This document shows, piece after piece, positions 32,408-55,891 of a DNA stretch of 64,000 bases. The DNA comes from Pseudomonadota bacterium (GTDB lineage: Bacteria > Pseudomonadota > Gammaproteobacteria > JBCCGL01): NCBI GenBank assembly GCA_039029275.1, contig JBCCGL010000010.1:61-64060 (forward strand). Reading direction: 5' to 3'. Positions within the stretch are counted from its first letter, which is position 1; every line of letters starts with the position of its first letter. The notes beneath the pieces were generated by a model. The model saw only the letters and a list, made by a program, of their open reading frames with translations. It made no database searches and was not told where the DNA came from. Position numbers and translations under genes: made by a program.

Positions 32408-32495
32408 TTCGGGACCTGGCCAGGGAACGCGAGAAATAATCTGGCAACGTATCACTCCAACACCAAATGAAGACAACGAGAATGAGGAAAAAACA

Positions 32496-34988: not shown

Positions 34989-35048
34989 GATAGATGACCG
35001 TGATTAGTCGATTTTTAACACTGCAATAGCGCGTGAGCAAGTTTGTCG

Positions 35049-35267: not shown

Positions 35268-35269
35268 AA

Positions 35270-35782
35270 CTATTCGCGCAGAAGTTTGCGCACTTGTTCC
35301 TCATATTTCACTTCGTAGCCTGGTTTGTATCCTTTATGCAGGTAACGCATATTGCCGTCACGATCGACCAGAATTGTCGTCGGCATTGCCTGTACCTGGT
35401 ACAGCTGACTCACCAGGTTTTGATCGTCGAATAAGATTGGAAACGTCACCGGTGTCGATTTCAGCATATTTTTCGCAGGCTTTGTATCCTGTTCAACGTT
35501 TACACCAAGAACCGTAAACCCCAGCGGTTTAAACTGTTGATACATTGCGTCCAATAGCGGCATTTCCTGTCGGCATGGACCGCACCACGATGCCCAGAAA
35601 TTGATCATGACAACCTGTCCACGCTGCTCCCCCAGGCGCAGGTTGATACCGTCATTACTCCGCAAACTAAAATCGGGAGACGGGCTATTCAGCTCAATAG
35701 CGTAAGCCGTTGACGTTAAACAAAGCACCAAAGCAATCAGGCCAAGGCACTTGCGGAAGTAATATGTGTAAACTTTGTGCAT
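35270..35782 (-). CDS. TlpA-like periplasmic thiol:disulfide oxidoreductase
   Basis: 'FWASWCGPCRQEMP' thioredoxin CxxC. Signal peptide from the internal Met (MHKVYTYYFRKCLGLIALVL). Start trimmed from 35878. Confidence 0.8.
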   Translation of the reverse strand: MHKVYTYYFRKCLGLIALVLCLTSTAYAIELNSPSPDFSLRSNDGINLRLGEQRGQVVMINFWASWCGPCRQEMPLLDAMYQQFKPLGFTVLGVNVEQDTKPAKNMLKSTPVTFPILFDDQNLVSQLYQVQAMPTTILVDRDGNMRYLHKGYKPGYEVKYEEQVRKLLRE

Positions 35783-35795
35783 GGTGTCTTCTCTT

Positions 35796-36449
35796 TTAAA
35801 AAAACAGCGACGCGCCGATCGAAAGTTCCAAATTGTGGGCCGTTTTACTCTCGCCCAGTAAATCGAGGTCAAATACATGATCTCGAAAATCGATGTGGAA
35901 GGCGAAAGAATCGTTAATCAAAAACCGATATCCGCTGCCGAAATTAAATGTAAACAGACTGTCACCGGCAAACTCGGTGCTTCCCGCCCCAGCGATTACG
36001 TAGACTGCTGTATTGAACGCATAGTCATCACCGATAAACGTTTCACCCAACAGGTTGTAACCGACAGAAATATTATAGAACGTGTAATCGCGTTGATCAT
36101 CGGTGAGGAGTTGAATGTCCCCGTTTAACCGCTCAAAGGTTGTTTCGTTCGCCGTGGACGTGCCGACCGTGCCTTCGACAAACAGATTTTCGGATAAATG
36201 ATATGCAATCTTTCCACCTGCTACGCTGCTAACGCCGAAATCTTCGATACTGATGAAGCCAGCGAATGCAGTCACCTCAAGATTTTCTGTATCGATTGCC
36301 GCCTCGTCGATTGTGCGTCTTTCAACACTCTGCTCGACCACCTGCCCGAGACTGTCCTCAGTATCAACTGAGCCATCGAGATCATGGTTATCAGCAAGCG
36401 CCGGGGCGGATAAGCCAAATACCAGAATGAACGCCAAATAAATACGCAT
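35796..36449 (-). CDS. small outer-membrane beta-barrel protein
   Basis: Signal peptide 'MRIYLAFILVFGLSAPALA', OmpA-like beta-barrel pattern, C-terminal 'IGASLFF'. Start overlaps the upstream stop (ATGA). Confidence 0.6.
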   Translation of the reverse strand: MRIYLAFILVFGLSAPALADNHDLDGSVDTEDSLGQVVEQSVERRTIDEAAIDTENLEVTAFAGFISIEDFGVSSVAGGKIAYHLSENLFVEGTVGTSTANETTFERLNGDIQLLTDDQRDYTFYNISVGYNLLGETFIGDDYAFNTAVYVIAGAGSTEFAGDSLFTFNFGSGYRFLINDSFAFHIDFRDHVFDLDLLGESKTAHNLELSIGASLFF

Positions 36450-37201
36450 TAGAAAAATACCGACACGCCGAGTTTCCACTGTTTAACCTTGTCGTTGTCG
36501 TCTCGACTCGTGATGATCGTCATTTGATCGTACTCAAAGCGCAACACAAATCGTTTACCAAGAAATCGTCTAACCCCGATACCCGCGCGCAAAAACTGGT
36601 CACTGCGATCTTCCGATGCGACGAGTGTTGCATCGGGCTCGGTTTGAATCACACCAGAACCCAGCGAGAAGAAAGGCGAGTAAGTCCATTCGGGAAACGG
36701 TTGATTGACGCCGTTAAAACTAAAAAAAATGCTGTTTGAAACGTCACCTAAAGCATGCGAAAGCGAAGCTTCCGCTGAGAGATTGGGGGTAAAGTGATAC
36801 GCGGCGTAGGTGGAGATTACAGCCGCACCGCCAAAATCGCCTCCCATCACACCGCCTTCCCAACGACGCTGATTGAAATCATCCTGTGTGAGTTCTGCTA
36901 GCTGCACGTCGCTGCCGTCGAGGTTGAGCGTGCGTGCAATTTGCTCCCTGGATACCCACCCTTCAACACCTCGCGCGGTTCGAATTTTGAACCAGTCATG
37001 TCGTCGCAAAAGAAGTTCGATCTCTTCACCTCGATCAACCACATGGAAAATCGGGAATGCACTGCCCGCACCGGTGTGCATCTCGACGAACGGATCGGCG
37101 ACCTGCACGCGCTGAAAGGATTCTTCTTCGGCGCCCACTGCTTGCGACAAAACCAGTAGCGCGCACAGCATGCCGCGCTGCAAACAACGCCAGATTCTCA
37201 C
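36449..37201 (-). CDS. SH3b-domain + beta-barrel envelope protein
   Basis: Signal peptide. SH3-like 'VEGWVSREQIARTL'. C-terminal barrel ending 'WKLGVSVFF'. Confidence 0.55.
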   Translation of the reverse strand: MRIWRCLQRGMLCALLVLSQAVGAEEESFQRVQVADPFVEMHTGAGSAFPIFHVVDRGEEIELLLRRHDWFKIRTARGVEGWVSREQIARTLNLDGSDVQLAELTQDDFNQRRWEGGVMGGDFGGAAVISTYAAYHFTPNLSAEASLSHALGDVSNSIFFSFNGVNQPFPEWTYSPFFSLGSGVIQTEPDATLVASEDRSDQFLRAGIGVRRFLGKRFVLRFEYDQMTIITSRDDNDKVKQWKLGVSVFF

Positions 37202-37385
37202 TGCTGTTGAGCCTGTTCATGGTTCATGGCTTATGAATAATGGCGACAGACAATTTCACTCTCTCGGGCCAGACAAATTTGAGCGCACTCAATACCTTAC
37301 ATTCTAGCGTGGTTTTGAGAAATCATTACCACTCATCACGTCGCTTCGTCTGCTGAATTGCGCGTTCTTCCGCTTTTACGCTCGA

Positions 37386-40007
37386 TTAATTGGTCGGCGC
37401 ATCAAACGGATTGTTGTAGTACTGCGCCCCTATATCGAGCCACTCGGCGATCAGGCGCAGTTCTTCTGGGTCCAATCGGCCGTCGTGCGTACCGCCGGGA
37501 TCGAACACAGAAAAGAAGTTACTTTGCGCGGCACCGGCCCCGGACATGGAAGGTCCAGGGGTCGCCGTCACGGGCTGAAGGATTGGGTTGCCGTCATCGT
37601 CCAAACCAACTTCGATAATCAAATCGATGAGTTCGGTGGTGTCGCCGTCACCATCGCTGTCGTCGACATCGATCACCTGCTGGATATCGGCAAAAAACAG
37701 TTCGCGGTACGCTTTAAAACGATCTTCGTTGTCGTTCGGGCCATCATCGGTCAGATCTAACTGCGCGTCCGGCACGCGAGGGGCGTTCGCGTTGGCGACA
37801 TCGACAATCGTGTGGCATGCGGTGCAGGTGTCGTCCGGATCCGGGCGAGTCAAATCCCACATCGGGTGAATATGCGTTTCGTAATGAATCACGACGCGAC
37901 AACGGTTGCTCCACTCGGGCTCGCAGTTAAGCGCAGGCGACGGTGTGGTTAATCCGGCGTAGCGTAAAAAGAGATCGGCATCTGGCGTGCGCACGAGAGG
38001 ATCGGTCCAAACGTCTGTGTATTCGATGTCTGCGGATGGCGTTGTCGCTGCGCAATCGACAGTGCAATCTGCGAACCCACTGTGACGCGCGCGGGTTTGC
38101 GCCATCGTTTCGCCTGCATCGGTCCACAGGCGTGCGACGGTGTTCGGAAACGGCTGACCGGTCAGCTGCGATCCCTGATTGATCGATACAAACTCGGCAC
38201 CCATTCGACCATGGCTTGCTTCGCTATCCGCAGTATGGCAACCATTGCAGGTGCGTGTTTCACCCGGTCGAAGTTGAATCCAATTCTGGTGTCGACCACC
38301 AATTCTTCTTCCGTTGGCATCCAGAACGCTCACCGTAAAAGAGACGTCTGCTGGCACTTTTACGCGAACAGATCCATCCGGCTCGATCGGCGCGTAGCCG
38401 ACTATCTCTCGCATAAGCTGATTAATCTGCGGGCCGAATGCACTGTTGTTGAAATCCTGCACGTCGTCATCCGGAATTGACACCGCTTTGGTTAAGCGTA
38501 AAAACCGCGCGGGACGCTCGGCTGCCAGCGTCTGCGCGGGGTCGGCTAAAACACCGATTCCGTTTGTAGATGTATCGACACCGTCAAAATCGTAGACACT
38601 GCGGATATCCAGAATCGCGACCCCTTCATCGGCTAGTGTGGCATCAAGATCAATACCGGGCAGTTTGTCAATTAAAGCCGTGGGCCGCGTGCGTGGGTGC
38701 GCGGCTACCACGTCGGTGTAAACAATGTTTTCCTCGGGCAACACAACCGGCAACTGCGTGTCCGATCCCACATCGCGAATCCAAACGCCATACAACGGAT
38801 TGGCTTCGACTACATCCTCGATTGCAAGATTGTCAGTTGTGCAAGCGACAATGACTTCGTCAACCAGCAAGCGGCACGGCGACCAACTCGTCATCATTCG
38901 GTCAGTGCCATCCCACAGCGGGTAAACACTGCTGAAGCGACCACCAGTGGACGGCTCATCATCAGTGCGCACGTTAACGCCCGCCGCATTTGTGTGAGCG
39001 CTTTGCACAACAGTGCCGATTCCTATTTGCTCAAATTCGTCAGTGTAGATTGCAGCGTCGATCAAGATTGGCGAGGCATCGTAACGATCATTCGTGAACG
39101 GTCGAATCAAACTTAAAACCTGCCCGCTCGGCGCTTCGCGCGCATCGGTAAATTGAACAGTCTCACCGTCGGTGCCGATCTCGTGGCTGTGGCGCCCATA
39201 AAACAGGGACAACTCGGTGCCATCCGGGCGAATTGTATAAAGGTGCATTGCGTTACGGGCACCCGCGGCGTCCCAACGCGTAAACAAAATGTACCCGGAA
39301 GATAAAACGGAGGGATCCAAGTCGTGACTTTGATTAAATGTGATTTGCCGAATTTCGGAACCGTCTTCGTTCATCACGTGCAAGGCGAAGGCCTCTTCAC
39401 GACGCTCTTCGTCCAGCGTTGTGAACTGGGGTTTGTTTTCATCCAGCAAAATTGCTCGGGCACGCTCCTGCCGCGTTGACGCAAAAACTATTCGACCATC
39501 AGGCAAATAATGAGGCGCGACATCCTGCCCTTCTTCCGCCACGATGTCGCTGGTAATTATCCTGCGCAGCGTTGCGCTGGAAATTTCGTATTCCCAAATA
39601 TTCCAAGTGGGTTGTTCATCTTCGTCGGCATTTTCAATTTCCGGCGCGCGCATTGCGAAAACAATTTTTTCGCCATCGTACGAAGCTTCAATGTCCTTTA
39701 CATCGTAAAGTTCGCCCGCTTCAAATACGCCAATGGTAATTGCACGCTCGTCTGCACTCGGTGATGCACGATCCCGAACGTACAATACGGCGCCGGGAAA
39801 AAAGTCGGCTGGGCTTCGGATGTCAGACGTTTCGCGTTCACCGTCGTCATCAAGCGGCAACGGACGTTTAACGTAAGCGAGTGGAAAATCCTGCAAGACC
39901 GGGTCGGGTTCCTGGCCACTACCGCCAATACTGCCACCACCGCACGCTTGTAAAAACATGACGGCAACAAGTGACAAAATTGTTATAAAACGCCGCAAAA
40001 AAATCAT
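37386..40007 (-). CDS. lipoprotein with TolB-like beta-propeller and C-terminal di-haem (2x CxxCH) domain
   Basis: Lipobox 'FLQACGGGS'. PD40-like propeller repeats (YLPDGRIVFAS, LYTIRPDGTE). Haem motifs 'TCNGCHT' and 'TCTACHT' near the C-terminus. 873 aa. Confidence 0.7.
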   Translation of the reverse strand: MIFLRRFITILSLVAVMFLQACGGGSIGGSGQEPDPVLQDFPLAYVKRPLPLDDDGERETSDIRSPADFFPGAVLYVRDRASPSADERAITIGVFEAGELYDVKDIEASYDGEKIVFAMRAPEIENADEDEQPTWNIWEYEISSATLRRIITSDIVAEEGQDVAPHYLPDGRIVFASTRQERARAILLDENKPQFTTLDEERREEAFALHVMNEDGSEIRQITFNQSHDLDPSVLSSGYILFTRWDAAGARNAMHLYTIRPDGTELSLFYGRHSHEIGTDGETVQFTDAREAPSGQVLSLIRPFTNDRYDASPILIDAAIYTDEFEQIGIGTVVQSAHTNAAGVNVRTDDEPSTGGRFSSVYPLWDGTDRMMTSWSPCRLLVDEVIVACTTDNLAIEDVVEANPLYGVWIRDVGSDTQLPVVLPEENIVYTDVVAAHPRTRPTALIDKLPGIDLDATLADEGVAILDIRSVYDFDGVDTSTNGIGVLADPAQTLAAERPARFLRLTKAVSIPDDDVQDFNNSAFGPQINQLMREIVGYAPIEPDGSVRVKVPADVSFTVSVLDANGRRIGGRHQNWIQLRPGETRTCNGCHTADSEASHGRMGAEFVSINQGSQLTGQPFPNTVARLWTDAGETMAQTRARHSGFADCTVDCAATTPSADIEYTDVWTDPLVRTPDADLFLRYAGLTTPSPALNCEPEWSNRCRVVIHYETHIHPMWDLTRPDPDDTCTACHTIVDVANANAPRVPDAQLDLTDDGPNDNEDRFKAYRELFFADIQQVIDVDDSDGDGDTTELIDLIIEVGLDDDGNPILQPVTATPGPSMSGAGAAQSNFFSVFDPGGTHDGRLDPEELRLIAEWLDIGAQYYNNPFDAPTN

Positions 40008-40458
40008 TTCCAGAAACAGTTAACGTATAACTAAAACGCTAGTGAGTTCTCACAGCAATTGAAAACGCATAACGACGGACGGCCAATATCATCATGATGG
40101 GCGGAAACGCTGTTGAAACAATACAATAGCGTGAATAAATTTTAAAAATTTAGACACCTCTTTATGAGAAATCAGAAAATCTTATCGACGAAAAACCGCT
40201 CAACTTTCAAAAACTAAAAATCAAAAGTCGTTCAAATTTAGTGCCAGTAAAAGTGCTCAACCACTAGTCGAGTTGTTACACCCTCTCATCCTGCAAACCA
40301 CTGCATCAGAAGCAGAATTTAACGATGCTAATTCAAAGACGCGACGAGTCGCTAACACGTTAGGCTTTTGAACAGTTGATTCGCGCGAACTTGCCTAGGC
40401 ACGTAATTCGCTACACTAACACCATAGAGTCACCCATGGCACACGAGATCACTCAAAA

Positions 40459-41712
40459 ATGTTGTTGAGAACTGAACTGAGTAAGTTCGCGATAGTGATC
40501 GCAACAGCATTCACTCTTATCATTACAAGCGTCACCGCTTCCGCCGGCTCGCGCGAAAAGGCTAAGCGCATTCATGATCGCCTGGCTGGCGTTCCTGCCA
40601 GTCAAGCAGTCCTTGATGACATGGTTAGCGACATCGACGGCATTGGCGATGGCAGCGGGACATTTGACGGAACACCCGCTGGAGCAGCCTACACGGCGAT
40701 GCAAAACAGCGCTTTTTACAACGTCACGCTGAAAAATTTTGCGATGCCCTGGACCAACCGTGAGTTCACAGTATTCGCCCCACTCAACGATTACGTCGCG
40801 ACCTTCATAGGCATGGTGCGCGATGACGTACCGATGAACCAGGCGCTCTCGGCGGACATTCTTTACATCGGCAGTGGCGGAAGTATCCCGGCCTATTCCA
40901 ACAGCGACAACGCGCATTACGAGGCGTTGGACGATCAAGGCGTTAACCTGCGTGACAACCTTATCCAGACAACGCAGTCTGCCGTTACCGGATTAGATTC
41001 ATCTGCCACCGCGGGTTTGATGACCACGCGCGCGGCGGCTAAATCGTTTTTTATCGCGGGTACAAACCGCGCGATGTTCCGCTTTACGATGCTTAATCAT
41101 CTGTGTCACGACATGGAACAGGTTGCCGACATTACCCGAGCGCCGGATCGCATCCGTCAGGATGTTTCGCGCAGTCCCGGGGGTGACAGCCGTATATTCC
41201 TGAACAACTGTATCGGTTGCCACAGCGGCATGGACGCGATGGCTCAGGCTTTTGCTTACTATGATTTCGCCTTCGACGCGGACAACGACCCAGAGGCCGA
41301 AAATGGCATCATGACCTACAACGGACCGGGCGTCGTTGACGAGGTTACCGGCACCCGCGTGCACTCCAAGTACTTTAACAATAACAGCAACTTTGACCCC
41401 GGCTTTGTCACACTTGACGATCGCTGGAGCAACTACTGGCGTGCGGGCCAGAACAAATTGCTCGGGTGGAGCGATCCATCTGAGGCAATGCGCCACGGCA
41501 ACGGCGCCAAATCGCTGGGTGAAGAACTCGCCAACAGCGAGGCATACGCGCGCTGTCAGGTTGAAAAAGTGTTTAGAGCGGTGTGTCTGCGTGATCCTGT
41601 TGACGCCGGCGACCGAGGTCAGATCGATACCATGATCGGTGACTTCATCACCAGCAATTACAACCTCAAGCAGCCGTTTGCCCAAAGTGCGCTGTTTTGC
41701 AGCGGGTCGTGA
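40459..41712 (+). CDS. secreted mono-haem (CxxCH) protein, 417 aa
   Basis: Signal peptide 'IATAFTLIITSVTASA'. Single 'NNCIGCHSGMD' haem-binding motif. No recognised enzymatic family. Confidence 0.65.
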   Translation: MLLRTELSKFAIVIATAFTLIITSVTASAGSREKAKRIHDRLAGVPASQAVLDDMVSDIDGIGDGSGTFDGTPAGAAYTAMQNSAFYNVTLKNFAMPWTNREFTVFAPLNDYVATFIGMVRDDVPMNQALSADILYIGSGGSIPAYSNSDNAHYEALDDQGVNLRDNLIQTTQSAVTGLDSSATAGLMTTRAAAKSFFIAGTNRAMFRFTMLNHLCHDMEQVADITRAPDRIRQDVSRSPGGDSRIFLNNCIGCHSGMDAMAQAFAYYDFAFDADNDPEAENGIMTYNGPGVVDEVTGTRVHSKYFNNNSNFDPGFVTLDDRWSNYWRAGQNKLLGWSDPSEAMRHGNGAKSLGEELANSEAYARCQVEKVFRAVCLRDPVDAGDRGQIDTMIGDFITSNYNLKQPFAQSALFCSGS

Positions 41713-41807
41713 TCATGCGTAGCCGGTCAAGCCAAACTATGAATGCACCCGCACCTGCGCTGCGTCAGTTGCACCGTCTCGAGCGCAACGATGCATTGCG
41801 GTCACGA

Positions 41808-44267
41808 ATGTCGTCTTTCCTTCTTTGGGCGATGATGATCGGCTTACTGCTGCTCAGTGGGTGTGGCGGTGGTGGCGGTGCTGATACCACATCCAATCCG
41901 CCTGGCGGCGGCGAGGGTGGTGGCGACTACAATGGACCCGCGCCACAAACAGCAGACGTTCAAGCCTTTCGCCTTGCACTGTGGGAAAACGTGCGAGACG
42001 AGAACCGTTGCGGTGCCTGCCACAGTGCGGTTGGCGGGCAAGACCCCATGTTTGCGCGCAGCGATGACGTCAACCTCGCTTACGCCGCTGCGATTATGCC
42101 GGTTGTTAATCGAGGTGATCCGGATGAGTCCTTGCTGGTAACCCAGGTCGCAGACGGCCACTTCTGCTGGTTGACGAGCAACGAGGCCTGCGCCGACACG
42201 ATGGAAAACTACATCGAAAACTGGATTGGTGGCAGCGGCGGTGCAGTAAATGAAATTGAATTATCAATACCCATACAAAAAGACGTTGGCGAGAGCAAAA
42301 ACTTTCCTGACGACTCGAGCGGTTTCAGCCCGATCCACACTTTGCTGACGACCTACTGCGCAGACTGCCATGTCGACAGCGTGGATCTCCCGCAACAGCC
42401 GTACTTTGCGGTAAGCGATATCGATGCGGCCTACGACGTGGTCAAAAGCAAGATCAACCTCGACACACCCGAAGATTCGCGTCTGGTCGTTCGCCTAGGA
42501 AGCGAATTCCACAACTGCTGGGATGATTGCACGGCAAACGCCGATGAAATGGAAACGGCGATTCAAACCTTTTCCGACAGTATTGTCCCGACTGAAGTTG
42601 ATCCGGATCTCGTGATAAGTAAAGCGCTGTTGTTGGGCGATGGAATCGTCGCCAGCAGCGGCGGACGCTTCGAAACCAACGTGATCGCGCTGTACGAGTT
42701 TAAAACCGGAACCGGATCCACGGCCTTCGACACCAGCGGCGTTGAGCCCGCAATTAATATGACGTTCAGTGGCGACGTCGAGTGGGTCGGCGGTTATGGT
42801 ATCCGCGTGACCGAAGGCGGCAAGGCACAAGGTTTGACCGACACCAGCCAGAAACTGCGCGATCGAATCACCCTCACTGGTGAATACAGTATTGAGGCAT
42901 GGGTCGTGCCCGGTAACGTGGTGCAGGAAGATGCCAACATCATCAGCTATTCCGGCTCCGATACCAGTCGTAACTTTACGCTGGGTCAAACGATGTACAA
43001 CTACGACTTCTTCCATCGCAGTAGCACCACGGGTGCCAACGGCGACCCCGCACACTCCACTAACGATGACGACGAGGACTTACAGGCAACCCTGCAACAC
43101 GTGGTTGTCACGTACGATCCGGCTAACGGCCGCAGGATTTACGTCAACGGCGTGTTCACAGATGACATCGACGAAACCGAGGGCGGTAATCTGTCCGACT
43201 GGGCCAGTAACTTTGCACTGGTTTTCGGGAACGAAACATCGGGCAATCGCGAGTGGGAAGGCACCTTGCGTTTGGTCGCGATTCACGAGCGCGCCCTGAC
43301 TGAAGAGCAGATTCTCACCAACTTCGAAGTCGGCGTCGGTCAGAAGTTTTACCTGCTGTTCAACGTCAGCGATCACGTCGGTCTGCCCGATGCCTATGTG
43401 GTGTTTGCGGTCAGTCAGTTCGATTCCTACAGCTACCTGTTTGAGGAGCCGTTCTTTATCAGTCTCGACGAAACGGCGGTGCCTAACAGTGTTCCGATGA
43501 TGGGTATGCGCATCGGCATCAACGGGCGCGAGGCCACGATCGGTCAGGCCTATCGAACGCTCGACACAACGCTGGAAGCCGCCGACTACTCAGCCGCAAG
43601 TGGATTAAGTCTGTCGCCGACGGGAACGATCATCGGCCTGGAAAAAGGCCCAGAAAGTGACGAATTCTTCCTCACTTTTGAACTGCTCGGCAGCAGCTCT
43701 AATGTCGTGGTAGAAGCAGATCCGATTGCACCACCCACTCCACCGGACGGTGCGCCTGTCTCTGACATTGGCGTGCGCACTTTCGACGAAATCAACTACT
43801 CGATGGCCGAACTGACCGGCGTCAGCATCACCAATTCCAACGTGTTAGAGACCTATGAAACTGTTAAGCAGCAGCTGCCAACGACGGAAAACGCACAAAC
43901 ATTTTTATCATCGCATCAGGTGGCAATTTCGCAGCTGGCGATCGAGTACTGCAGCGAGTTAGTGGACAACACGACCTTGCGCGACGGCTTTTTTAACGAC
44001 GGCACCGCATTTAACTTCGCCGCGCCTCCCGGCACCGCGGCTCCGCTGGGGACCAATTGGGAATTTCAAGTTGTGCTTCCGCTGGTCGATGCAGTAACGC
44101 AATCCACCGATTTACAGCCAATGGCTGTTGGTCCGACTCGAACCGACATGCGCGATGAACTTCTCGCCCTGATTACGCGTCTTGGCGGTAGCGGAACCGC
44201 GACCAATAGTATCGCTAAAGGCACCTGTGCCGCGGCTCTGGGCAGTGCCGCCCTGTTAGTCCAATAA
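41808..44267 (+). CDS. lipoprotein with two CxxCH haem motifs and a LamG (concanavalin-A-like) domain
   Basis: Lipobox 'LLLSGCGGGG'. 'RCGACHS' and 'YCADCHV'. LamG-like core 'YSIEAWVVP...HVVVTYDPANGRRIYVNGV...LVFGNE'. Start placed at the Met preceding the lipobox; the ORF could start at 41697. Confidence 0.65.
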   Translation: MSSFLLWAMMIGLLLLSGCGGGGGADTTSNPPGGGEGGGDYNGPAPQTADVQAFRLALWENVRDENRCGACHSAVGGQDPMFARSDDVNLAYAAAIMPVVNRGDPDESLLVTQVADGHFCWLTSNEACADTMENYIENWIGGSGGAVNEIELSIPIQKDVGESKNFPDDSSGFSPIHTLLTTYCADCHVDSVDLPQQPYFAVSDIDAAYDVVKSKINLDTPEDSRLVVRLGSEFHNCWDDCTANADEMETAIQTFSDSIVPTEVDPDLVISKALLLGDGIVASSGGRFETNVIALYEFKTGTGSTAFDTSGVEPAINMTFSGDVEWVGGYGIRVTEGGKAQGLTDTSQKLRDRITLTGEYSIEAWVVPGNVVQEDANIISYSGSDTSRNFTLGQTMYNYDFFHRSSTTGANGDPAHSTNDDDEDLQATLQHVVVTYDPANGRRIYVNGVFTDDIDETEGGNLSDWASNFALVFGNETSGNREWEGTLRLVAIHERALTEEQILTNFEVGVGQKFYLLFNVSDHVGLPDAYVVFAVSQFDSYSYLFEEPFFISLDETAVPNSVPMMGMRIGINGREATIGQAYRTLDTTLEAADYSAASGLSLSPTGTIIGLEKGPESDEFFLTFELLGSSSNVVVEADPIAPPTPPDGAPVSDIGVRTFDEINYSMAELTGVSITNSNVLETYETVKQQLPTTENAQTFLSSHQVAISQLAIEYCSELVDNTTLRDGFFNDGTAFNFAAPPGTAAPLGTNWEFQVVLPLVDAVTQSTDLQPMAVGPTRTDMRDELLALITRLGGSGTATNSIAKGTCAAALGSAALLVQ

Positions 44268-44315
44268 GCTTATGTTTTTACTGAAAATGGTTATTAGCTC
44301 TGTGGGATTTATCCG

Positions 44316-45959
44316 ATGAAGTACAAATCCAAAAAACCCGATTACTCCGATCCTGACGAACCGTTGCCACAACCGGATCACGAACGCCCGGTCACGCGAC
44401 GCGACTTTCTTGCTCAAGGTTTCATTGGCGGTGTCGGGACGGTGCTCGGCACCACTGCGCTCAGCATGTTTGCGAACCCTCGGGCGGCCTACTCGGCGCT
44501 ATCGCCTGATCTGGAATTGTTAAAAACAAGCTGCGGCATCGCGACCCAGGGGGCGGGTAAAATACCGTTTATCTGCATTGACCTTGCTGGCGGCGCAAGC
44601 ATGGGCGGTTCGAACGTACTCGTCGGCAGACAGGGAGGACAGATGGATTTCCTCACTACCGCCGGGTACAGCCGACTCGGGCTTCCGGGCGATATGATCC
44701 CCGGCGTTGCGGAGCCCGGTGGGGCAGGCAGCAGCGCCACTGGCACCAGCAATGGCGATCACACCGACACAACTCTGGGGCTTGGCTTTCACGCAGACAG
44801 CGCGTTTTTACGCGGTATGCTCGAGAAGATATCGATCTCACATCGGGCGTTAATTAATGGTGCAGTTATTCCTGCACGTTCGGAGAACGACACTGGCAAC
44901 AACCCACACAATCCGATGTATGGCATCAATAAATTGGGAGCCGACGGCTCGTTGCTGACATTAATTGGGTCAGAGAATTCTGTTTCTGGTGGAAATTCGA
45001 TGGCTCCGGACGCGCTGATTGATCCATCCGCGCAACCCACCAAGGTTGACCAGCCGAGCGACGTTACTGGTCTTGTCGATACCGGCAAACTGATTGGCGT
45101 GCTCGACCAATCGGACGCAGTTTCCGTGCTCGAATCGATTCAACGTGTCAGCTCGATGAAGCTTGACGCGGTTGCCGCAGAGTTCAGCGATACTGACATT
45201 CAGGATCAGATGAACTGCGGATACGTCAAAAGCGCTGACTTGGCCGATCGGTTTGGTGATCCATCCACGCTTAATCCAGAGGGTGATCCTCTGATAAACG
45301 GTACAGACGCGGTGTTTAATACGCCGATCTTTACCGCCGACGATTTCAATGACCGCGAGTTTCGCAAAACCGCATCGGTGATGAAGTTGGTGATCAACGG
45401 ATTTGCAGGCGCCGGCACGATTTCGATGGGAGGTTACGATTATCACGGGGGTGCCAGAGCACGCGGCGAGGTGCGCGATTTACGCGCCGGTCGCTGCATG
45501 GGCGCCTGTCTCGAATACGCCGCGCGTGTTAATGTGCCGTTGATGCTGTATGTCTCCAGCGACGGCTCACTTTCAAGTGACGGTACGATTGATAATACTG
45601 AAGACGGTCGCGGAAAGGGTGAATGGGTCAGCGACAATTCATCCACTGCAGCATCGTTCTTTCTGGTCTATAACCCCGCCGGGCGGCCCACATTGTTAGG
45701 CGGGACGCTTGACCAACAGGCGATGCATCAGCAGCTAGGGTATTTCAGGCCGGACGGATCGGTGGAAACGACATCGAGCCCGGCAGCAAATAACGTTAAT
45801 CTTCTGGTTAATACAGTTTTGCTCAACTACGCCGCACTGCACGGTGATCAAGCGGCGTTCACCAGTTTGTTTCCGGGCAACAGTCACGGGCTCGGCAGCA
45901 CAGCCGCCGCGCTCGATTCGATGACGGCCTTCAATCCGATAGTTACCGGAACAATTTAG
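44316..45959 (+). CDS. Tat-exported protein (DUF1501/DUF1552-like?), 547 aa
   Basis: Twin-arginine signal 'TRRDFLAQGFIGGVGTVLG'. 'KIPFICIDLAGGASMGG' resembles the metal-site region of alkaline-phosphatase-fold DUF1501 proteins. Confidence 0.6.
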   Translation: MKYKSKKPDYSDPDEPLPQPDHERPVTRRDFLAQGFIGGVGTVLGTTALSMFANPRAAYSALSPDLELLKTSCGIATQGAGKIPFICIDLAGGASMGGSNVLVGRQGGQMDFLTTAGYSRLGLPGDMIPGVAEPGGAGSSATGTSNGDHTDTTLGLGFHADSAFLRGMLEKISISHRALINGAVIPARSENDTGNNPHNPMYGINKLGADGSLLTLIGSENSVSGGNSMAPDALIDPSAQPTKVDQPSDVTGLVDTGKLIGVLDQSDAVSVLESIQRVSSMKLDAVAAEFSDTDIQDQMNCGYVKSADLADRFGDPSTLNPEGDPLINGTDAVFNTPIFTADDFNDREFRKTASVMKLVINGFAGAGTISMGGYDYHGGARARGEVRDLRAGRCMGACLEYAARVNVPLMLYVSSDGSLSSDGTIDNTEDGRGKGEWVSDNSSTAASFFLVYNPAGRPTLLGGTLDQQAMHQQLGYFRPDGSVETTSSPAANNVNLLVNTVLLNYAALHGDQAAFTSLFPGNSHGLGSTAAALDSMTAFNPIVTGTI

Positions 45960-46108
45960 TCCTCTGTTTCCTACGGGTGCATTGGGGAGCGAATTCGCTC
46001 CCTTTTTCTTTTGCACCCGGTGAATCTTTCGAATTGAAAGAAAACCATTGCTGTTCGTGCTAGTCTCGCGGCAACTTTTTTCTACGCCCCGTTCAATCTG
46101 CCATCACC

Positions 46109-46885
46109 ATGTGCCGCCACGCCGCTTACATCGGCCCTGCGATCTCGCTCGCGCAATGCTTTCTCGAACCCGAGCACGGACTTCTGCAACAGGCGGAACA
46201 TCCGCGTGAAATGCGCGTCGGGCGCGTTAACGCAGACGGCTTCGGTATTGGCTGGTTTATCGACAGAGACAAACCAGCAGCGTACAAAAATATTCAACCC
46301 ATTTGGTCAGACACTAATCTAAGCGCACTAGGGGTTTCCTTATTCAGCACACAGTGGATCGGGCTCGTGCGCGGCGCATCACCAGGACTGGGCGTGAGCA
46401 TCGACAACACTCATCCGTTTTATGACAATAGATGGCATTTCACGCTGAATGGGATTATTACTGATTTCGCAAACACGCTGCGTCCCGCGATCAACAATCG
46501 ATTGAGCGATGACATTTCAGCGACCATTATGGGGCACACAGATGCCGAGTTTATTTTTGCCTTGATGCGTCAGTTCTCTCTCGAAGAGCCTGATTCATCA
46601 ACCACACAACTCTTGCAAAAAGTTGTGGATTTTCTGGAGGAGGTTGCAGGCGATATCGAAATCGCGCTTAGTGTTTTGGTTTGCGAGAAAGATTCAATGT
46701 ATGCGATCCGCCACTCGGTTAACTTGCCTTTTCCAACGCTTTACTACAGCGAAGAGTATGTTGGCGGTGTTGCCGTGGCATCCGAACCCATGACTGATCG
46801 CCGGTACTGGAAGCTGATGCCAGAGCAAAGTCTATTAATTGCCGAGGCAAATAAACGTGTCAGGTTTGAGCGTGTCGGCAAATAG
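46109..46885 (+). CDS. class-II (Ntn) glutamine amidotransferase, EgtC-like
   Basis: 'MCRHAAYIG' N-terminal Cys nucleophile. 258 aa. GATase_4/6 family features 'RVNADGFGIGWF'. Confidence 0.75.
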   Translation: MCRHAAYIGPAISLAQCFLEPEHGLLQQAEHPREMRVGRVNADGFGIGWFIDRDKPAAYKNIQPIWSDTNLSALGVSLFSTQWIGLVRGASPGLGVSIDNTHPFYDNRWHFTLNGIITDFANTLRPAINNRLSDDISATIMGHTDAEFIFALMRQFSLEEPDSSTTQLLQKVVDFLEEVAGDIEIALSVLVCEKDSMYAIRHSVNLPFPTLYYSEEYVGGVAVASEPMTDRRYWKLMPEQSLLIAEANKRVRFERVGK

Positions 46886-46895
46886 CACATTCGAC

Positions 46896-47735
46896 ATGTT
46901 TGACAACCAGGACTTCGTCGCCGCGATACGCGCCCAGGTGGCGGCCGCTCTACATGAAGATATGGGCAGCGGAGATATCACCGCGGCTCTGTTAAACAAT
47001 CATGACGTGAACGCGCGAGTTGTTTGTCGCGATCGCGCGGTTGTATGCGGAACGGCCTGGTTTGATGAAGTGTTCAGGCAAATAGACGACACGATTGCCG
47101 TCTCATGGAAAAAGTCCGACGGCGACGAAGTCGACGCCGGAACAACTCTGTGTAGCTTAAGCGGTCCGGGGCCCGCAATATTAAGCGGTGAACGCACCGC
47201 GTTGAATTTTCTTCAAACACTGTCCGGAACGGCAAGCACGACGCGACTTTTTGCAGACGCACTCAAAGGCTCAAGCACACAATTACTCGATACGCGAAAA
47301 ACCATACCCGGCTTAAGGCTGGCGCAAAAATATGCAGTCAAGTGCGGTGGCGGAACGAATCACCGTGTTGGTCTGTTCGATGCATTTTTAATCAAAGAAA
47401 ATCACATTGCTGCAGCGGGCGGAATAGCAGAGGCATGCGCGCGCGCACGTAAAATGTATCAGGAAAAATTACTGGAGGTCGAAGTTGAAACCTTTGACGA
47501 ATTGCAGCAGGCGATTGACGCAAATGTCGACCGGATTATGTTGGATAATTTTTCATTGGAAGAAACCACACAAGCTGTTCGTATAGCAAACGGGCGGATA
47601 CCGCTGGAATCGTCCGGCGATATAAACATCAACTCGATTGCCAGGATCGCCGCAACGGGCGTTGACTATATCTCCATAGGCGCAATCACCAAACACGTCC
47701 AGGCGATTAATCTGTCGTTGCAGGTGCTCGACTAA
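46896..47735 (+). CDS. nadC: nicotinate-nucleotide pyrophosphorylase (carboxylating)
   Basis: QPRTase fold. About 280 aa from 'MFDNQDF'. C-terminal TIM-barrel motifs 'LDNF...GVDYISIGAIT'. Confidence 0.85.
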   Translation: MFDNQDFVAAIRAQVAAALHEDMGSGDITAALLNNHDVNARVVCRDRAVVCGTAWFDEVFRQIDDTIAVSWKKSDGDEVDAGTTLCSLSGPGPAILSGERTALNFLQTLSGTASTTRLFADALKGSSTQLLDTRKTIPGLRLAQKYAVKCGGGTNHRVGLFDAFLIKENHIAAAGGIAEACARARKMYQEKLLEVEVETFDELQQAIDANVDRIMLDNFSLEETTQAVRIANGRIPLESSGDININSIARIAATGVDYISIGAITKHVQAINLSLQVLD

Positions 47736-49051
47736 GCGGTGTAAATATCCAATTCGAGTCGCTTGATAAACAGCTCGACGTAGCGCTCAGACTCTGCTGG
47801 ATCAAATCCAAACTCCCGCTCAAGCACATCGGCCAGTTCACGATAAGTCATGTCCTGATTGACATGTGACAGGATATGAAAAAACGTCGCGTTTTCAATT
47901 TTGTAGCGTTCAAATTCTGGCGTGTAGCGTATTTTCTGCGGCGATGACGAGCGCGGAAATGCTTTCTCAGTCAACGCCGACGCAATCTGATTTGGTTGTT
48001 TTGCATCAATAAACAAAACGCTTTCCATCCGTTGTTGCGAATCCAGTGGACTCTGCAAATAGGGAATACTGGTTTGCTGCAAACTACAATCTGAAAATCG
48101 CAGCGTAAACTCCGCCTCGACCTCCTCACGGCACAGCTGGTGATGCTCTAGTGATTTGTGCACGTTTGCCGGTCCGAAGAACAACAATTTTCCCTCATCG
48201 CCGATCATTCGGCTTGCGCAATCCAGTGCGTCGCCAAAGGGAAAATCGACAACGTCCAGAAACCAGGGTGCAATCACAACGTCGAATGCCTTTTCTCGAA
48301 AAGGCATATTCGGAAACTCACACAGTATTTGTGCGTGGTTACAACTCGACAATTTTTCCGCTTTTATCTCCCAGGTTTGCGATGCGTGGTTCAAGTCGCG
48401 GGGGTATACGCTGTAATCAGTGAGCTTGAACGACTTACCTCTAAATATTTTATCTGCGCCTAGTGCGAGCAGCGGGTTGTGCTCTGCGGATATTACGCTC
48501 GTCGATGTAAAGTGATTGGCGAGGTGGTAACTCAGACCTCCCGCCCCCGATCCAAGTATCAAAATAGATTCAGTTTTTGCGTCAATATGTTCAACGCAAT
48601 ATTCAACGTAACGTGTGAGCTCCTCGTGTCCCCAACACCAATCGCGAAAGAACAATTGAAAGTAGCTGTAAATCTGCTGAGTTGAAGGCAAAGCAAGTGC
48701 GTCCTGGGGTTTCTTAAACTCGTTTAAAGTCGATTTCATCCAGGTCAAATTCTTACTGCGCGCTTGATGCTGCTGGCTCAGGCGTTTATTGGCGAGCGAA
48801 CCGCCCGAGTCATTCATTCGGATTTGTAAGTGCTTGAGGTAAAGCGCCTCGCGCTCAAAATAGCTGTGAACCTTTCGAGCCCACTCCAAGCGTGCATTTT
48901 CAGGATCGGCGAACAGCCATGGGATCCCATCGAGCATTGGATAACTGACGCTGCCTGCCGCGAACCCGTCTCCGCTCTTGCGAAGCAGATCGCCGGAGCC
49001 GGGGCATACGAGATTGGCAGCTAGAAAATCATCGATCGTCATACAATTCAA
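47732..49051 (-). CDS. SAM-dependent methyltransferase with N-terminal Trm112-like zinc-ribbon domain
   Basis: 'LVCPGSGDLL' Trm112p-like. Class-I MTase Gly-rich motif 'ILILGSGAGG'. 439 aa. Confidence 0.65.
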   Translation of the reverse strand: MNCMTIDDFLAANLVCPGSGDLLRKSGDGFAAGSVSYPMLDGIPWLFADPENARLEWARKVHSYFEREALYLKHLQIRMNDSGGSLANKRLSQQHQARSKNLTWMKSTLNEFKKPQDALALPSTQQIYSYFQLFFRDWCWGHEELTRYVEYCVEHIDAKTESILILGSGAGGLSYHLANHFTSTSVISAEHNPLLALGADKIFRGKSFKLTDYSVYPRDLNHASQTWEIKAEKLSSCNHAQILCEFPNMPFREKAFDVVIAPWFLDVVDFPFGDALDCASRMIGDEGKLLFFGPANVHKSLEHHQLCREEVEAEFTLRFSDCSLQQTSIPYLQSPLDSQQRMESVLFIDAKQPNQIASALTEKAFPRSSSPQKIRYTPEFERYKIENATFFHILSHVNQDMTYRELADVLEREFGFDPAESERYVELFIKRLELDIYTA

Positions 49052-55779: not shown

Positions 55780-55891
55780 TGTTTTACTCCTCCAAATTAA
55801 AGAAACCGCGAACGAATAAATGTCCGGATAGCTTGAGAACCCTATGCAGTGCCACCGCAGTTTGTATCAGGTGTAAGGCTGCATCTGAAAT

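Follow-up and report, generated by a model that had tools for sequence, protein, structure and literature searches.

A nine-gene gammaproteobacterial unit encoding predicted haem, flavin and thiol proteins, and its genomic coupling to ApbE and an Agl-Glt-type core

Two divergent operons and their exported haem proteins

Within the window (the whole 64-kb stretch of DNA that was analysed), nine genes are arranged in two divergent operons at positions 33759-45959. The preliminary description had recognised four of them, encoding the exported proteins referred to here as A, B, C and D, and all four open reading frames were confirmed with their coordinates, but the conserved unit spans nine genes. 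Indeed, the thiol-redox/DUF4266 cluster reported as a neighbour does adjoin these four genes but, together with a DUF3570 gene and two barrel genes, belongs to one conserved unit with A-D. Three of its products are lipoproteins (A, C and DUF4266), and three others bear outer-membrane-barrel signatures.

Protein A (37386-40007, minus strand) is an 873-aa outer-membrane lipoprotein (lipobox LQAC, Cys22) carrying two c-type haem motifs, CNGCH (residues 587-591, nt 38235-38249) and CTACH (residues 728-732, nt 37812-37826). Its earlier reading as a di-haem lipoprotein was confirmed. For the TolB/PD40-like propeller, PD40 scored 19.2 bits, under the Pfam cut-off of 20.9 bits; the HZS_alpha middle domain matched (Pfam, E 2.9e-16). 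The suspected likeness to hydrazine synthase alpha was borne out by this match and by alignment to PDB 5c2v_A, in which three collinear segments align with whole-length collinearity; the layout by homology is a beta-propeller, a middle domain and a C-terminal domain. By these sequence comparisons, A is truly homologous to hydrazine synthase alpha. Among 66 orthologues, conservation is 97% or higher at C22, C587/C590/H591, H599, C728/C731/H732 and H841, and H841 aligns with His772, the distal haem-alphaII ligand of hydrazine synthase alpha (numbering of PMC12758564), which A keeps, whereas the corresponding His is missing in planctomycete and Desulfobacterota homologues (PMC12758564). A nitrogen-oxide, hydroxylamine or hydrazine-type activity of A, within a periplasmic nitrogen-cycle or detoxification module, would agree with the middle domain, the collinearity and the retention of both haem sites including this His, but we consider it very improbable. 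Unlike hydrazine synthase, A continues from CNGCH into TADS, without a Tyr four residues past the haem-1 His, and because of this sequence the Tyr591/His587-Zn arrangement is missing. In addition, A reached 52.6 bits against the NCBIfam hydrazine synthase equivalog, with a cut-off of 800, no beta-gamma partner or further CxxCH protein was found in the window or the conserved neighbourhood, and such HZS-alpha homologues have been judged incapable of hydrazine synthesis (PMC12758564).

A and B diverge from an AT-rich spacer of 451 bp (40008-40458), where the promoters of both operons are presumed to lie; two weak sigma-70-like matches were found on its plus strand, and a search for a common motif in 70 orthologous A/B spacers found none. 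Protein B (40459-41712, plus strand), described earlier as a 417-aa exported mono-haem protein, indeed has a hydrophobic, signal-like N-terminus and a CIGCH motif (residues 251-255, nt 41209-41223). It is mostly helical and remotely of the PSCyt3 (DUF1588) and PSD2 (DUF1585) type: nothing in Pfam and NCBIfam matched B at threshold, and weak matches to PSD2/DUF1585 and PSCyt3/DUF1588 were obtained in 33 and 14 of the 36 family members, respectively.

Protein C (41697-44267, plus strand) is, from Pfam, lipobox and CxxCH evidence, an outer-membrane lipoprotein with two cytochrome c motifs, a LamG domain and a C-terminal domain, C' (about nt 43743-44267). Note that these coordinates are those of a stop-to-stop ORF taken from a TTG; translation probably begins at one of the ATG codons at 41715, 41742 and 41808, giving a product of 819-850 aa, in agreement with the lipoprotein of about 820 aa, with two CxxCH motifs and LamG, first proposed. 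The lipobox Cys (LSGC, Cys56) and both haem motifs, CGACH (residues 105-109, nt 42009-42023) and CADCH (residues 221-225, nt 42357-42371; all residues in ORF numbering), are invariant in the family, and the motifs are class-I-like cytochrome c, with Cytochrome_CBB3 matched in 30 of 33 members. The LamG domain (nt 42852-43313; Laminin_G_3, E 1.2e-20) is missing or replaced in distant relatives, in which C' is a lipoprotein gene of its own (201-241 aa) adjoining D.

Altogether, A, B and C carry five invariant CxxCH sites, where every haem Cys/Cys/His is shared by 97% or more of 66-72 orthologues, and among the ORFs of at least 150 aa (stop to stop) in the window CxxCH occurs only in these three and in one antisense ORF that is probably no gene. 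These data support A, B and C as exported proteins with predicted c-type haem attachment, outside standard respiratory families.

Protein D and the glycan alternative

Protein D (44316-45959, plus strand; 547 aa) represents a family without a Pfam or NCBIfam model. Its proposed Tat signal was substantiated by the motif TRRDFL, whose two Arg are conserved without exception across the 70 family members compared, even at 27% identity. The alkaline-phosphatase-like assignment found support at fold level only; the predicted structure is of low confidence (pLDDT 59.8), Foldseek with this model gave no significant match, and hhalign against E. coli PhoA returned 0.7% probability. D is predicted, at the level of the fold only, to have an alkaline-phosphatase-superfamily core, and a protein of this fold is not an obvious candidate for a redox enzyme. 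An intrinsic-terminator-like hairpin (45984-46003, plus strand), with an 8-bp stem including 6 G-C pairs and then the T-run TTTTCTTTT, marks the end of the B-C-D operon.

The likeness to planctomycete PSCyt/PSD proteins and their DUF1501/DUF1552 partners, raised in the preliminary description, persisted weakly in B and was absent from C and D. B-C-D could still be a gammaproteobacterial counterpart of this planctomycete/verrucomicrobial system, acting hydrolytically or oxidatively on sulfated or phosphorylated glycans in the periplasm, with LamG as a carbohydrate-binding module and A and the DUF3570 genes as accessories. The PSD2 and PSCyt3 resemblance of B and the LamG of C would fit, as PSCyt genes have also been reported with LamG-type modules, beside two unknown gene families (PMC5615132). 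However, this appears rather improbable, since none of 83 D orthologues has the sulfatase signature C/S-x-P-x-R, neither D of the window nor 10 distant relatives gave a Pfam match, including DUF1501/DUF1552, at E values up to 1, and no PSCyt or PSD domain was found in C. Moreover, LamG is lost or swapped in distant relatives, the surroundings of D-anchored loci show no conserved gene for a glycoside hydrolase, SusCD or a TonB-dependent receptor, and the genes are carried by chemoautotrophic symbionts (Thiodiazotropha, Sedimenticola) and polysaccharide degraders alike.

Thiol and flavin genes, and a metallophore neighbour

The five other genes all lie on the minus strand. An SH3-domain and small outer-membrane beta-barrel protein (36449-37201; Pfam SH3_3 and OMP_b-brl) has an aromatic C-terminal residue across 66 orthologues, and a second small outer-membrane beta-barrel (35796-36479) is of the TIGR04565 'OMP_myx_plus' type (NCBIfam 151 bits, cut-off 60); both are conserved in position and they are paralogues (hhalign 95%). 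The remaining genes encode a TlpA-like periplasmic thioredoxin with WCGPC (35270-35878; Pfam Redoxin and AhpC-TSA, 1e-27), a DUF4266 lipoprotein (35049-35267; Pfam 7.2e-23) with the invariant C-terminal end GGGCGCN (CxC), and a DUF3570 protein (33759-34988; Pfam 4e-40), presumed to be an outer-membrane barrel and ApbE flavinylation substrate. The thioredoxin gene is found beside DUF4266 in most loci and directly 3' of D in others, switching between the DUF3570 operon and the slot after D. The DUF3570 protein displays, by motif alignment, an aromatic C-terminus and two tandem D-x-x-[ST]-x-A-S sites, here [ST]-S-A-S and x-[ST]-A-S as compared with the published ApbE motif [S/T]GA[S/T]. ApbE has been shown to flavinylate the DUF3570 protein of Chlorobium luteolum, and the DUF3570/DUF4266/thioredoxin/ApbE set, whose clusters are widespread without A-D genes, has been proposed to receive electrons from DsbD (PMC8238504).

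Close by, at 30509-32948, there is a complete operon of the bufferin type (DUF2282 precursor, MbnB-family enzyme, DUF2063 and DoxX), and copper is chelated by bufferins (PMC11626156). From this metallophore neighbour, the preliminary description had suggested metal handling, so that unit and operon would together deal with copper or another metal, a reading we find hardly credible. Indeed, an unrelated GDPD gene stands between the two, and the operon was not found in 82 D-anchored loci, with only distant MbnB homologues ~9 kb downstream in 3 of them. The operon is an unrelated neighbour, and the metal-handling inference fails because it is not conserved beside the unit.

Conservation of the unit and its coupling to a motor core

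The cluster, first thought unexpected in a gammaproteobacterium, is typical of Gammaproteobacteria: the genomes of at least about 580 gammaproteobacterial species carry D, and the best 80 of about 583 or more species genomes were all gammaproteobacterial or labelled just Proteobacteria/Pseudomonadota. In the 82 D-anchored loci (67 evaluable for genes following D), the nine-gene order is retained wherever the flank suffices, across gammaproteobacterial orders (Alteromonadaceae, Chromatiaceae, Thiodiazotropha, Sedimenticola, Woeseiaceae, Steroidobacteraceae, Cellvibrionales, Pseudoalteromonas and Hahella). The initial view that A-D belong to no standard respiratory cytochrome family withstood both checks it had proposed, since HMM searches matched no characterised family and synteny is kept in relatives.

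A motor cluster of the Agl-Glt 'core complex' type (6492-15684, minus strand), identified from Pfam, NCBIfam and gene order and sizes, is headed by an ApbE flavin transferase gene (15855-16883, minus strand; Pfam 4.9e-70). It comprises, all on the minus strand, the leading gene p198 (15088-15684), TPR proteins of GltC (13007-15094), GltD (10116-13010) and GltE (9499-10119) size, an exported 92-aa protein (9224-9502), an ExbB/AglR-like protein (8490-9167), two ExbD/AglQS-like proteins (7999-8493 and 7502-8002) and a GltG-like TonB protein (6492-7502). An AgmX/PglI C-terminal domain was detected (NCBIfam, 68.5 bits, cut-off 40), order and sizes agree with the published core complex (Table S3, PMC3169522), and the cluster is collinear with that following D in locus L015. 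The motor cluster lies 3' of D on the same strand in about a quarter of the evaluable loci (16/67) and ApbE in 14/67; roughly 20 of the 82 D-anchored loci contain ApbE. The point of attachment varies by lineage: ApbE and motor genes follow D in some, and in Hahella, L108 and L121 they lie beyond DUF3570. In Hahella chejuensis, a 640-aa TPR gene comes after DUF3570 and p198, and the published table lists a 640-aa TPR protein as HCH_02601 (PMC3169522). In metagenome loci anchored on p198, the nine-gene unit was adjacent in 29/29, a figure biased upward because the sample comprised only the 80 top-scoring matches out of at least 548 and the profile was partly made from D-adjacent copies.

The coupling of the unit to ApbE and an Agl-Glt-type core is a new result, of genomic nature. 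Two or three independent systems could nevertheless lie side by side without a common pathway, namely a redox relay of the DUF3570/thioredoxin/HzsA-like type, an enzyme unit made up of B-C-D and the Glt-like motor. B-C-D is the older part and autonomous: in distant bacteria, relatives at 27-37% identity form a four-part operon of B-like protein, C', D and a cytochrome, and because in other phyla this core does without A, DUF3570 and the motor, the halves need not share one pathway. The DUF3570 clusters that occur without A-D genes agree with such independence, as do ApbE and the motor cluster, which are 17 kb from the unit in the window, the motor being non-adjacent in L173 and L174 on both sides. 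However, we judge this reading unlikely, as A and B diverge from one shared spacer wherever the flank is long enough, over several orders, the thioredoxin gene moves between both operons, and ApbE and the motor join either end of the unit; this shuffling of gene order with linkage kept fits the prediction of functional coupling.

For functional coupling itself, we would claim an even chance that, as the sequences suggest, the nine-gene module, ApbE and the Agl-Glt-type core form one outer-membrane thiol-to-flavin-to-haem platform with an alkaline-phosphatase-fold enzyme and a proton-driven motor; haem attachment, flavinylation and all protein contacts in it we infer from sequence. Thiols would carry reducing equivalents into the periplasm, a DsbD-type transporter passing them to the TlpA-like thioredoxin and this in turn to the DUF4266 CxC lipoprotein, and covalent FMNs on the DUF3570 barrel may switch two-electron to one-electron carriers. 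Electrons could then travel along the c-haems of outer-membrane-tethered A, B and C to D, the probable catalytic end, a Tat-exported metalloenzyme putatively docked to C', with LamG (in C) and the beta-propeller (in A) as the probable holders of the substrate. ExbB/ExbD/GltG-like motor and TPR scaffolds may link proton-motive force to the platform via the two small barrels.

Our findings make an exported haem/flavin/thiol set, present in hundreds of gammaproteobacterial species, a regular neighbour of the Agl-Glt gliding-motor core. To our knowledge, no role has been assigned to this core in organisms other than myxobacteria since 2011, and the nine-gene unit is a candidate partner for it. The proposed motor drive would, by analogy, be comparable to that of the Myxococcus GltA/B/H-GltK-CglB platform.

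Exported haem proteins and the conserved nine-gene unit

The four ORFs whose haem and export features had been noted in the preliminary description were all found at their positions in the window (37386-45959), and are referred to here as A, B, C and D. A (37386-40007, − strand; 873 aa) carries a lipoprotein signal (…FLQAC, Cys22) and the haem motifs CNGCH (587-591) and CTACH (728-732), and B (40459-41712, + strand; 417 aa) combines a hydrophobic signal at its N-terminus with CIGCH (251-255). The ORF of C starts from a TTG at 41697, thus overlapping the end of B, with in-frame ATGs at 41715, 41742 and 41808; its lipobox Cys is ORF residue 56, and it contains CGACH (105-109), CADCH (221-225) and a LamG domain (Pfam, 1.2e-20). 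D (44316-45959, + strand; 547 aa) displays T-R-R-D-F-L at residues 27-32, with a strong terminator-like hairpin downstream (45984-46003). Among the window ORFs of at least 150 aa, CxxCH was found in A, B, C and one antisense ORF and nowhere else, and each of the five motifs of A, B and C is conserved in at least 97% of 66-72 orthologues. Since the ORFs are present, the motifs are all but confined to them and conservation reaches this level, the four-ORF observation is real and not due to chance. Note that the antisense ORF (55183-55800, + strand) lies opposite a solute-binding-protein gene (54946-55779) and is probably not a gene. A k-mer search of 70 orthologous A-B spacers gave lineage-specific words and no shared regulatory motif, promoter-like sites in the A-B spacer region were rarer than in shuffled sequence, and an Rfam scan of the window returned no match.

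Gene order was compared in two complete genomes (Alteromonas and Neptunicella) and in 80 species genomes obtained with a D profile search. One arrangement, DUF3570-DUF4266-thioredoxin-small barrel-SH3/small barrel-A divergent from B-C-D, was found in all sampled genomes with a long enough flank and is the same in the window (33759-45959), so that the synteny proposed as a check in the preliminary description is indeed kept in relatives. The accompanying remark that such proteins are not expected in a gammaproteobacterium has to be abandoned, as the profile search found at least about 583 relatives of D in species genomes, and carriers of the unit include Alteromonadaceae, Chromatiaceae, Thiodiazotropha, Sedimenticola, Woeseiaceae, Steroidobacteraceae, Porticoccus, Microbulbifer, Pseudoalteromonas, Pleionea, Permianibacter and Hahella; this spread of carriers indicates a cluster typical of Gammaproteobacteria and not a foreign one. 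Within the unit, Pfam matches were obtained for DUF3570 (4e-40), for DUF4266 (7.2e-23; a lipoprotein ending GGGCGCN, with an invariant GCGCN terminus) and for the thioredoxin (1.2e-27; WCGPC). The first small barrel matches TIGR04565 ('OMP_myx_plus') with 151 bits, the second (SH3) barrel is its paralogue (hhalign 95%), and an aromatic C-terminal residue is present on all three barrel-type proteins.

DUF3570 is flavinylated by ApbE at two sites and clusters with DUF4266, a thioredoxin-like protein and ApbE, the electrons being thought to come from DsbD (Meheust et al. 2021, PMC8238504). All four components of that system, including the C-terminal CxC of DUF4266, are present here, and the DUF3570 orthologues show two tandem conserved sites, D-x-x-[ST]-S-A-S and x-[ST]-A-S, which are near but not identical to the published [S/T]GA[S/T], Ser/Thr replacing Gly. 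In contrast to the system of PMC8238504, the present one is invariably syntenic with two small barrels, an HzsA-like dihaem lipoprotein (A) and the B-C-D operon, and ApbE is not always in the cluster: in the window it is encoded at 15855-16883, 17 kb off the unit, and it was found within about 20 of 82 D-anchored loci. No DsbD domain was detected in the subset of window ORFs scanned, and the accessible part of the PMC8238504 supplement holds no PF18582, PF12094 or PF14086 entries. The unit provides the DUF3570 flavinylation system, an orphan, with a candidate terminal module. In a Candidatus Azotimanducaceae locus (L173, 1-3604), the DUF3570 operon abuts an Na+-NQR operon, which may be coincidence; NqrC of the latter operon is another ApbE substrate.

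A complete bufferin-type RiPP operon (30509-32948, + strand) comprises an 85-aa precursor with DUF2282, a signal peptide and four Cys (30509-30766), an MbnB/MNIO enzyme (30766-31641), a DUF2063 gene extending to 32407 and DoxX (32496-32948), and matches the copper-chelating bufferins of PMC11626156. Neither this operon nor the GDPD gene is a conserved neighbour of the unit. The metal-handling link to the copper-binding operon suggested in the preliminary description was consequently rejected, and the explanation that the unit forms a copper system with the bufferin operon, failing on synteny as it does, is most improbable. Further along, a class-II glutamine amidotransferase-like gene (46109-46885, + strand) overlaps the start of nadC (quinolinate phosphoribosyltransferase, 46839-47735, + strand), neither being conserved beside D. 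At 1.8 kb from D, a 439-aa cytoplasmic protein (47732-49051, − strand) combines an N-terminal Cys-rich ribbon with a methyltransferase-like body; it has homologues at loci L010, L062, L068, L082, L173 and others, the L173 copy matching Pfam CARME, and in 10/67 loci the gene that immediately follows D encodes one of these homologues.

Affinities of the four proteins

A matched the Pfam HZS_alpha middle domain (PF18582) at residues 531-591, ending at CNGCH, with 60.2 bits (cut-off 26.6; 2.9e-16), and aligned with hydrazine synthase alpha (PDB 5c2v_A; phmmer E 4.4e-8) in three collinear pieces corresponding to the propeller, the middle domain and the C-terminal end. With the haem ligand numbering taken from PMC12758564, the first CxxCH of A corresponds to haem alphaI, the second (the invariant CTACH) to haem alphaII, and H841, which is at least 97% conserved, aligns to chain residue 745, i.e., the distal ligand His772, in a segment that is weak alone. 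Domain order, both haem CxxCH motifs and the distal His are thus shared between the two proteins. With both haem sites and a His on the distal ligand His772 retained, A is more complete as an HzsA homologue than those described from planctomycetes and Desulfobacterota in PMC12758564. However, identity to HzsA is restricted to about 150 residues, the full-length NCBIfam equivalog NF052339 gave 52.6 bits against a cut-off of 800, and A differs from hydrazine synthase alpha by its lipoprotein anchor and from hydrazine synthase by its hosts, which are aerobic or facultative Gammaproteobacteria. In addition, whereas Tyr591 is the proximal ligand of haem alphaI in hydrazine synthase alpha and His587 is turned to a zinc ion (PMC12758564), A has a Ser four positions past the motif His (CNGCHTADS; a sequence-only test) and hence lacks this arrangement. 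The beta/gamma partner of HzsA (propeller plus dihaem peroxidase-like) was not found in the conserved neighbourhood, and the window has no CxxCH ORF beyond A, B, C and the antisense one. A was thus rejected as a hydrazine synthase, having no partner subunit and no Tyr/Zn site, and a nitrogen-cycle enzyme, which would fit A alone among the four proteins, is very improbable for the unit since partner subunits and active-site features are missing. Our literature search on HzsA-like proteins gave no functional data. A family that keeps both haem sites in aerobic bacteria bears on the debate over the origin of hydrazine synthase.

B gave no Pfam or NCBIfam match at threshold, the window copy reaching 12.1 bits with PSD2 (PF07624; cut-off 25.8). 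At the family level, PSD2/DUF1585 was weakly matched at the C-terminus in 33/36 members (best 1.1e-6) and PSCyt3/DUF1588 (PF07627) around the haem motif in 14/36 (best 0.011), and some B homologues carry a precomputed PF07624 match. All members of the C family contain LamG, and a class-I cytochrome c signal was obtained in 30/33; PSCyt and PSD domains were absent from this family, and PSD3, PSD4 and PSD5 from the scans of both the B and C families at E up to 1. PDB sequence and profile searches with B and C found nothing, and the model of B (pLDDT 70.8) resembles no solved structure. The PSCyt/PSD likeness put forward in the preliminary description is weakly indicated for B, through the PSD2 and PSCyt3 matches of its family, and is not supported for C nor, at the sequence level, for D, which gave no DUF1501/DUF1552 match. 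What is shared with the planctomycete and verrucomicrobial PSCyt3-PSD systems is a haem-motif protein for which the weak family matches suggest a PSCyt3-then-PSD2 order (B), a large partner with a LamG-type module (C) and a neighbouring Tat-exported protein of alkaline-phosphatase-like fold, which is predicted for D; what differs is that their partners are DUF1552 proteins (or DUF1501 with PSCyt2/PSD1), of which D matches neither, and that the domains are here spread over three genes. No functional data were found in the literature on DUF1585-1595 or on LamG with Alteromonas. B (at least about 8000 close homologues) and D represent two large families without a Pfam model.

At 50% identity, the D family falls into 1526 clusters. 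Neither D nor its relatives at about 30% identity matched a Pfam or NCBIfam family or a PDB sequence; together with 10 distant relatives, D gave no Pfam match at E up to 1, DUF1552 and DUF1501 included, and the H..SHH motif of the DUF1552 type (HXXSHH) is absent from it. A tblastn search of D against 72,556 plasmids gave no match even at E 10, and profile matches of D in the PDB were limited to the Tat signals of NosZ and PaoA. Its AlphaFold model is poor overall (pLDDT 59.8, pTM 0.66), and the predicted alpha/beta core matches solely the alkaline-phosphatase superfamily, Foldseek giving the same superfamily without significance; a core fold of this superfamily, which comprises alkaline phosphatases, sulfatases, nucleotide pyrophosphatases and phosphoethanolamine transferases, is accordingly predicted for D. 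Among 70 members, the Tat RR, G92, G93, D192, D375, H377, D416, G417, D440, Q473, G475 and N504 are invariant, and H22, C73, S162, N196 and C301 nearly so. On the model, D89 is placed at the end of strand 1 and D161-S162 at a helix N-terminus, and with D375/H377, D416 and D440 also placed, conserved residues would sit at the metal-ligand and nucleophile positions of the superfamily. An hhalign comparison of the D family with E. coli PhoA put D416 on Asp369, which is structurally sensible but insignificant (probability 0.7%). The 'alkaline-phosphatase-like' label of the preliminary description hence holds for the predicted fold, together with the Tat motif ([ST]-R-R-x-F-L followed by a hydrophobic stretch, RR invariant in 70/70), and does not extend to membership in any family at the sequence level. 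D also departs from the superfamily in its obligate cytochrome partners and in its Tat export with a conserved extended n-region. This n-region (residues 1-32, nt 44316-44411) is unusually long and itself conserved (P16, H22, P25), with the consensus H-x-x-P-x-[ST]-R-R-[DE]-F; H22 is retained by at least 90% of the family, members as distant as 27% identity included. The n-region might serve as a recognition mark for a dedicated export chaperone. The E. coli alkaline phosphatase can use phosphite as a substrate for oxidation, and a speculative role for D would be to draw electrons from this or another reduced phosphorus compound and pass them to the cytochromes. Orthologues of D bear the title 'general secretion pathway protein GspF' in several NCBI records (Alteromonas, Aliiglaciecola, endosymbiont of Escarpia); as no similarity to any GspF family appeared in our scans, this label looks like a propagated mis-annotation.

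Taken together, B, LamG and the sulfatase-like fold matches of D would fit a planctomycete-style glycan or sulfate-ester system. Against it, the type I sulfatase signature C/S-x-P-x-R was found in 0/83 D orthologues, for which D was rejected as a type I sulfatase, no carbohydrate genes are conserved with the unit and its carriers are not restricted to polysaccharide degraders, so that we regard such a system as distinctly unlikely.

In other bacteria, relatives of D at 27-37% identity (L083-L090 among the loci) are found in a constant four-gene operon encoding a B-like mono-haem protein (391-521 aa), a C'-like lipoprotein, D and a cytochrome, where C' denotes the C-terminal domain of C. Indeed, the 201-241 aa lipoprotein upstream of D is a homologue of the last ~170 residues of C (HMM positions 650-821), and the cytochrome downstream (290-1375 aa) is homologous to the N-terminal haem region of C; A and DUF3570 are absent from these operons. 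By these homologies, the gammaproteobacterial C unites in one chain the two proteins encoded on either side of D elsewhere, and this fusion speaks for a physical cooperation of C', D and the cytochrome. B-C-D is thus an older autonomous unit, and the A/DUF3570 half is a lineage-specific addition. In the distant-relative cytochromes, LamG seems to be replaced by other beta-sandwich domains (weak GH115_C and PPC hits).

Linkage to the Agl-Glt-type motor cluster

A motor cluster (6492-15684, − strand) lies 17 kb from the unit in the window; the stretch between the two includes a gene (18027-19436, − strand) whose product joins a Ser/Thr protein kinase to a cyclic-nucleotide-binding domain. The array, all on the − strand, is headed by ApbE and continues with p198 (198 aa, exported), three TPR proteins (695, 964 and 206 aa), a small exported protein of 92 aa (9224-9502), an ExbB-like protein (225 aa), two ExbD-like proteins (164 and 166 aa) and a TonB-like protein (336 aa). 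Pfam recognised MotA_ExbB, ExbD twice and TPR, and the TonB-like protein matched the AgmX/PglI (GltJ/GltG) C-terminal domain NF033768 with 68.5 bits (cut-off 40) and the GltG equivalog with 23.5 bits against 650, as expected of a distant relative. These genes resemble the core complex made of gltC, gltD, gltE, gltG, aglR, aglQ, aglS and one extra gene (Luciano et al. 2011, PMC3169522; Wartel et al. 2013, PMC3858216). Between 6492 and 15094, the genes run in the order of the complexes of PMC3169522 Table S3 and encode proteins of nearly the same sizes; examples of these complexes are CJA_3313-3319 (173, 181 and 231 aa, a skipped locus tag, then 244, 964 and 660 aa) and, for comparison, HCH_02601-02603. 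The core complex is conserved in Gammaproteobacteria without an assigned function, possibly as a basal transport machine, and neither study mentions cytochrome, flavin or thioredoxin neighbours (PMC3169522, PMC3858216). p198 (15088-15684, − strand) is absent from the seven genes of the published complex and belongs to no Pfam or NCBIfam family, yet it is highly conserved, notably in the stretches LLFP…TQ…V.LS.D.G.FF.LDSV and YLYT.RE..AL.RGG, with at least 548 relatives in metagenome contigs.

The motor array directly follows D on the same strand in 16/67 evaluable D-anchored loci, and ApbE follows D in 14/67. On p198-anchored metagenome contigs with at least 2.5 kb upstream, the module adjoins p198 in 29/29 loci, a count obtained with the best 80 of at least 548 relatives and a p198 profile built partly from D-adjacent copies. 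The order was A <> B-C-D-thioredoxin-p198-TPR…TonB in 27 of these loci and A-barrel-barrel-thioredoxin-DUF4266-DUF3570-ApbE-p198-TPR… in the other two. In two genomes, inspection of both flanks of the unit revealed no adjoining motor cluster. In Hahella chejuensis KCTC 2396, whose genome was part of the 2011 study, p198 and a 640-aa TPR gene come after DUF3570; HCH_02601 is a 640-aa TPR protein in the PMC3169522 table, and their match relies on species, length and position. Since several species have two or more core complexes (PMC3169522), only the p198-type complex may serve this module.

Such linkage could also arise from independent systems that are merely co-located, and the occurrence of B-C'-D alone elsewhere would agree with that. 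The thioredoxin, ApbE and motor cluster, however, shuffle around both ends of the unit with the linkage kept, which makes simple co-location unlikely. What the core complex does outside myxobacteria has been posed explicitly as a question since 2011 (PMC3169522, PMC3858216), and a fixed genomic partner provides a testable candidate cargo with recognisable cofactors (haem, FMN, thiols and a predicted metal site), found in the genetically tractable Cellvibrio japonicus, Saccharophagus, Hahella and Alteromonas.

A putative redox platform compared with known systems

Altogether, cofactor motifs, export signals, lipoprotein and barrel signatures, synteny, domain fusion and fission and the three-way ApbE/motor linkage were observed, and they suggest an outer-membrane platform with D in which electrons would run from thiol to flavin to haem, served by the motor. 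We consider this overall picture about evenly poised between right and wrong, and hold any single step of it with much less confidence. In E. coli, a Gly or Ser after the lipidated Cys sorts a lipoprotein to the outer membrane, and the lipoproteins of the unit, which have one of these residues there, would be located accordingly. Thiol reducing power might pass through the TlpA-like thioredoxin to DUF4266, and the FMNs of DUF3570 would act as a converter between two-electron thiol chemistry and the one-electron haems. Electrons would travel to or from the working site of D over the haem groups of A, B and C, D itself being possibly docked on C', with the LamG domain of C and the propeller of A as putative binding modules. 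By analogy with Myxococcus (PMC11761067), the ExbB/ExbD/GltG-like motor may act on this platform via the TPR scaffolds and the two small barrels.

A bolder reading, which we find rather unlikely, is that the ancestral gammaproteobacterial Agl-Glt core is a proton-driven trans-envelope machine ending in this outer-membrane redox platform. That end would comprise a pair of GltA/B-like barrels, DUF3570 as a flavinylated barrel, and A and C as haem lipoproteins. The motor would here position, unmask or gate surface haem lipoproteins, as the Myxococcus machine does with the adhesin CglB. If true, this would represent a new energised outer-membrane or extracellular oxidoreductase system, fed from thiol to flavin to haem, and would supply the missing 'cargo' of a machine ancestral to gliding motility and spore-coat assembly.

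The interpretation given in the preliminary description, an uncharacterised periplasmic or outer-membrane redox or metal-handling system, is partly supported. In Myxococcus, three barrels and two lipoproteins make up the outer-membrane complex that docks on GltC (PMC11761067), and the three barrels and three lipoproteins of the unit may parallel GltA/B/H with GltK and CglB, whereas p198 and the haem/flavin/thiol module have no described Myxococcus counterpart. The MtrCAB porin-cytochrome conduits likewise combine lipoprotein cytochromes with an outer-membrane barrel, a likeness that is a functional analogy only: the unit has five haems in total over three proteins, no decahaem protein and a flavin-carrying barrel candidate, and sequence comparison with MtrCAB-type proteins gave nothing beyond chance-level matches. 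Each kind of component was already known, though uncharacterised (HZS_alpha proteins, the DUF3570 system, PSCyt/PSD-like proteins and the Agl-Glt core). Against the searchable literature, the novelty lies in the nine-gene unit, the split-and-fused architecture around D, the two large families without a model and the link between the unit and the Agl-Glt core of Gammaproteobacteria.
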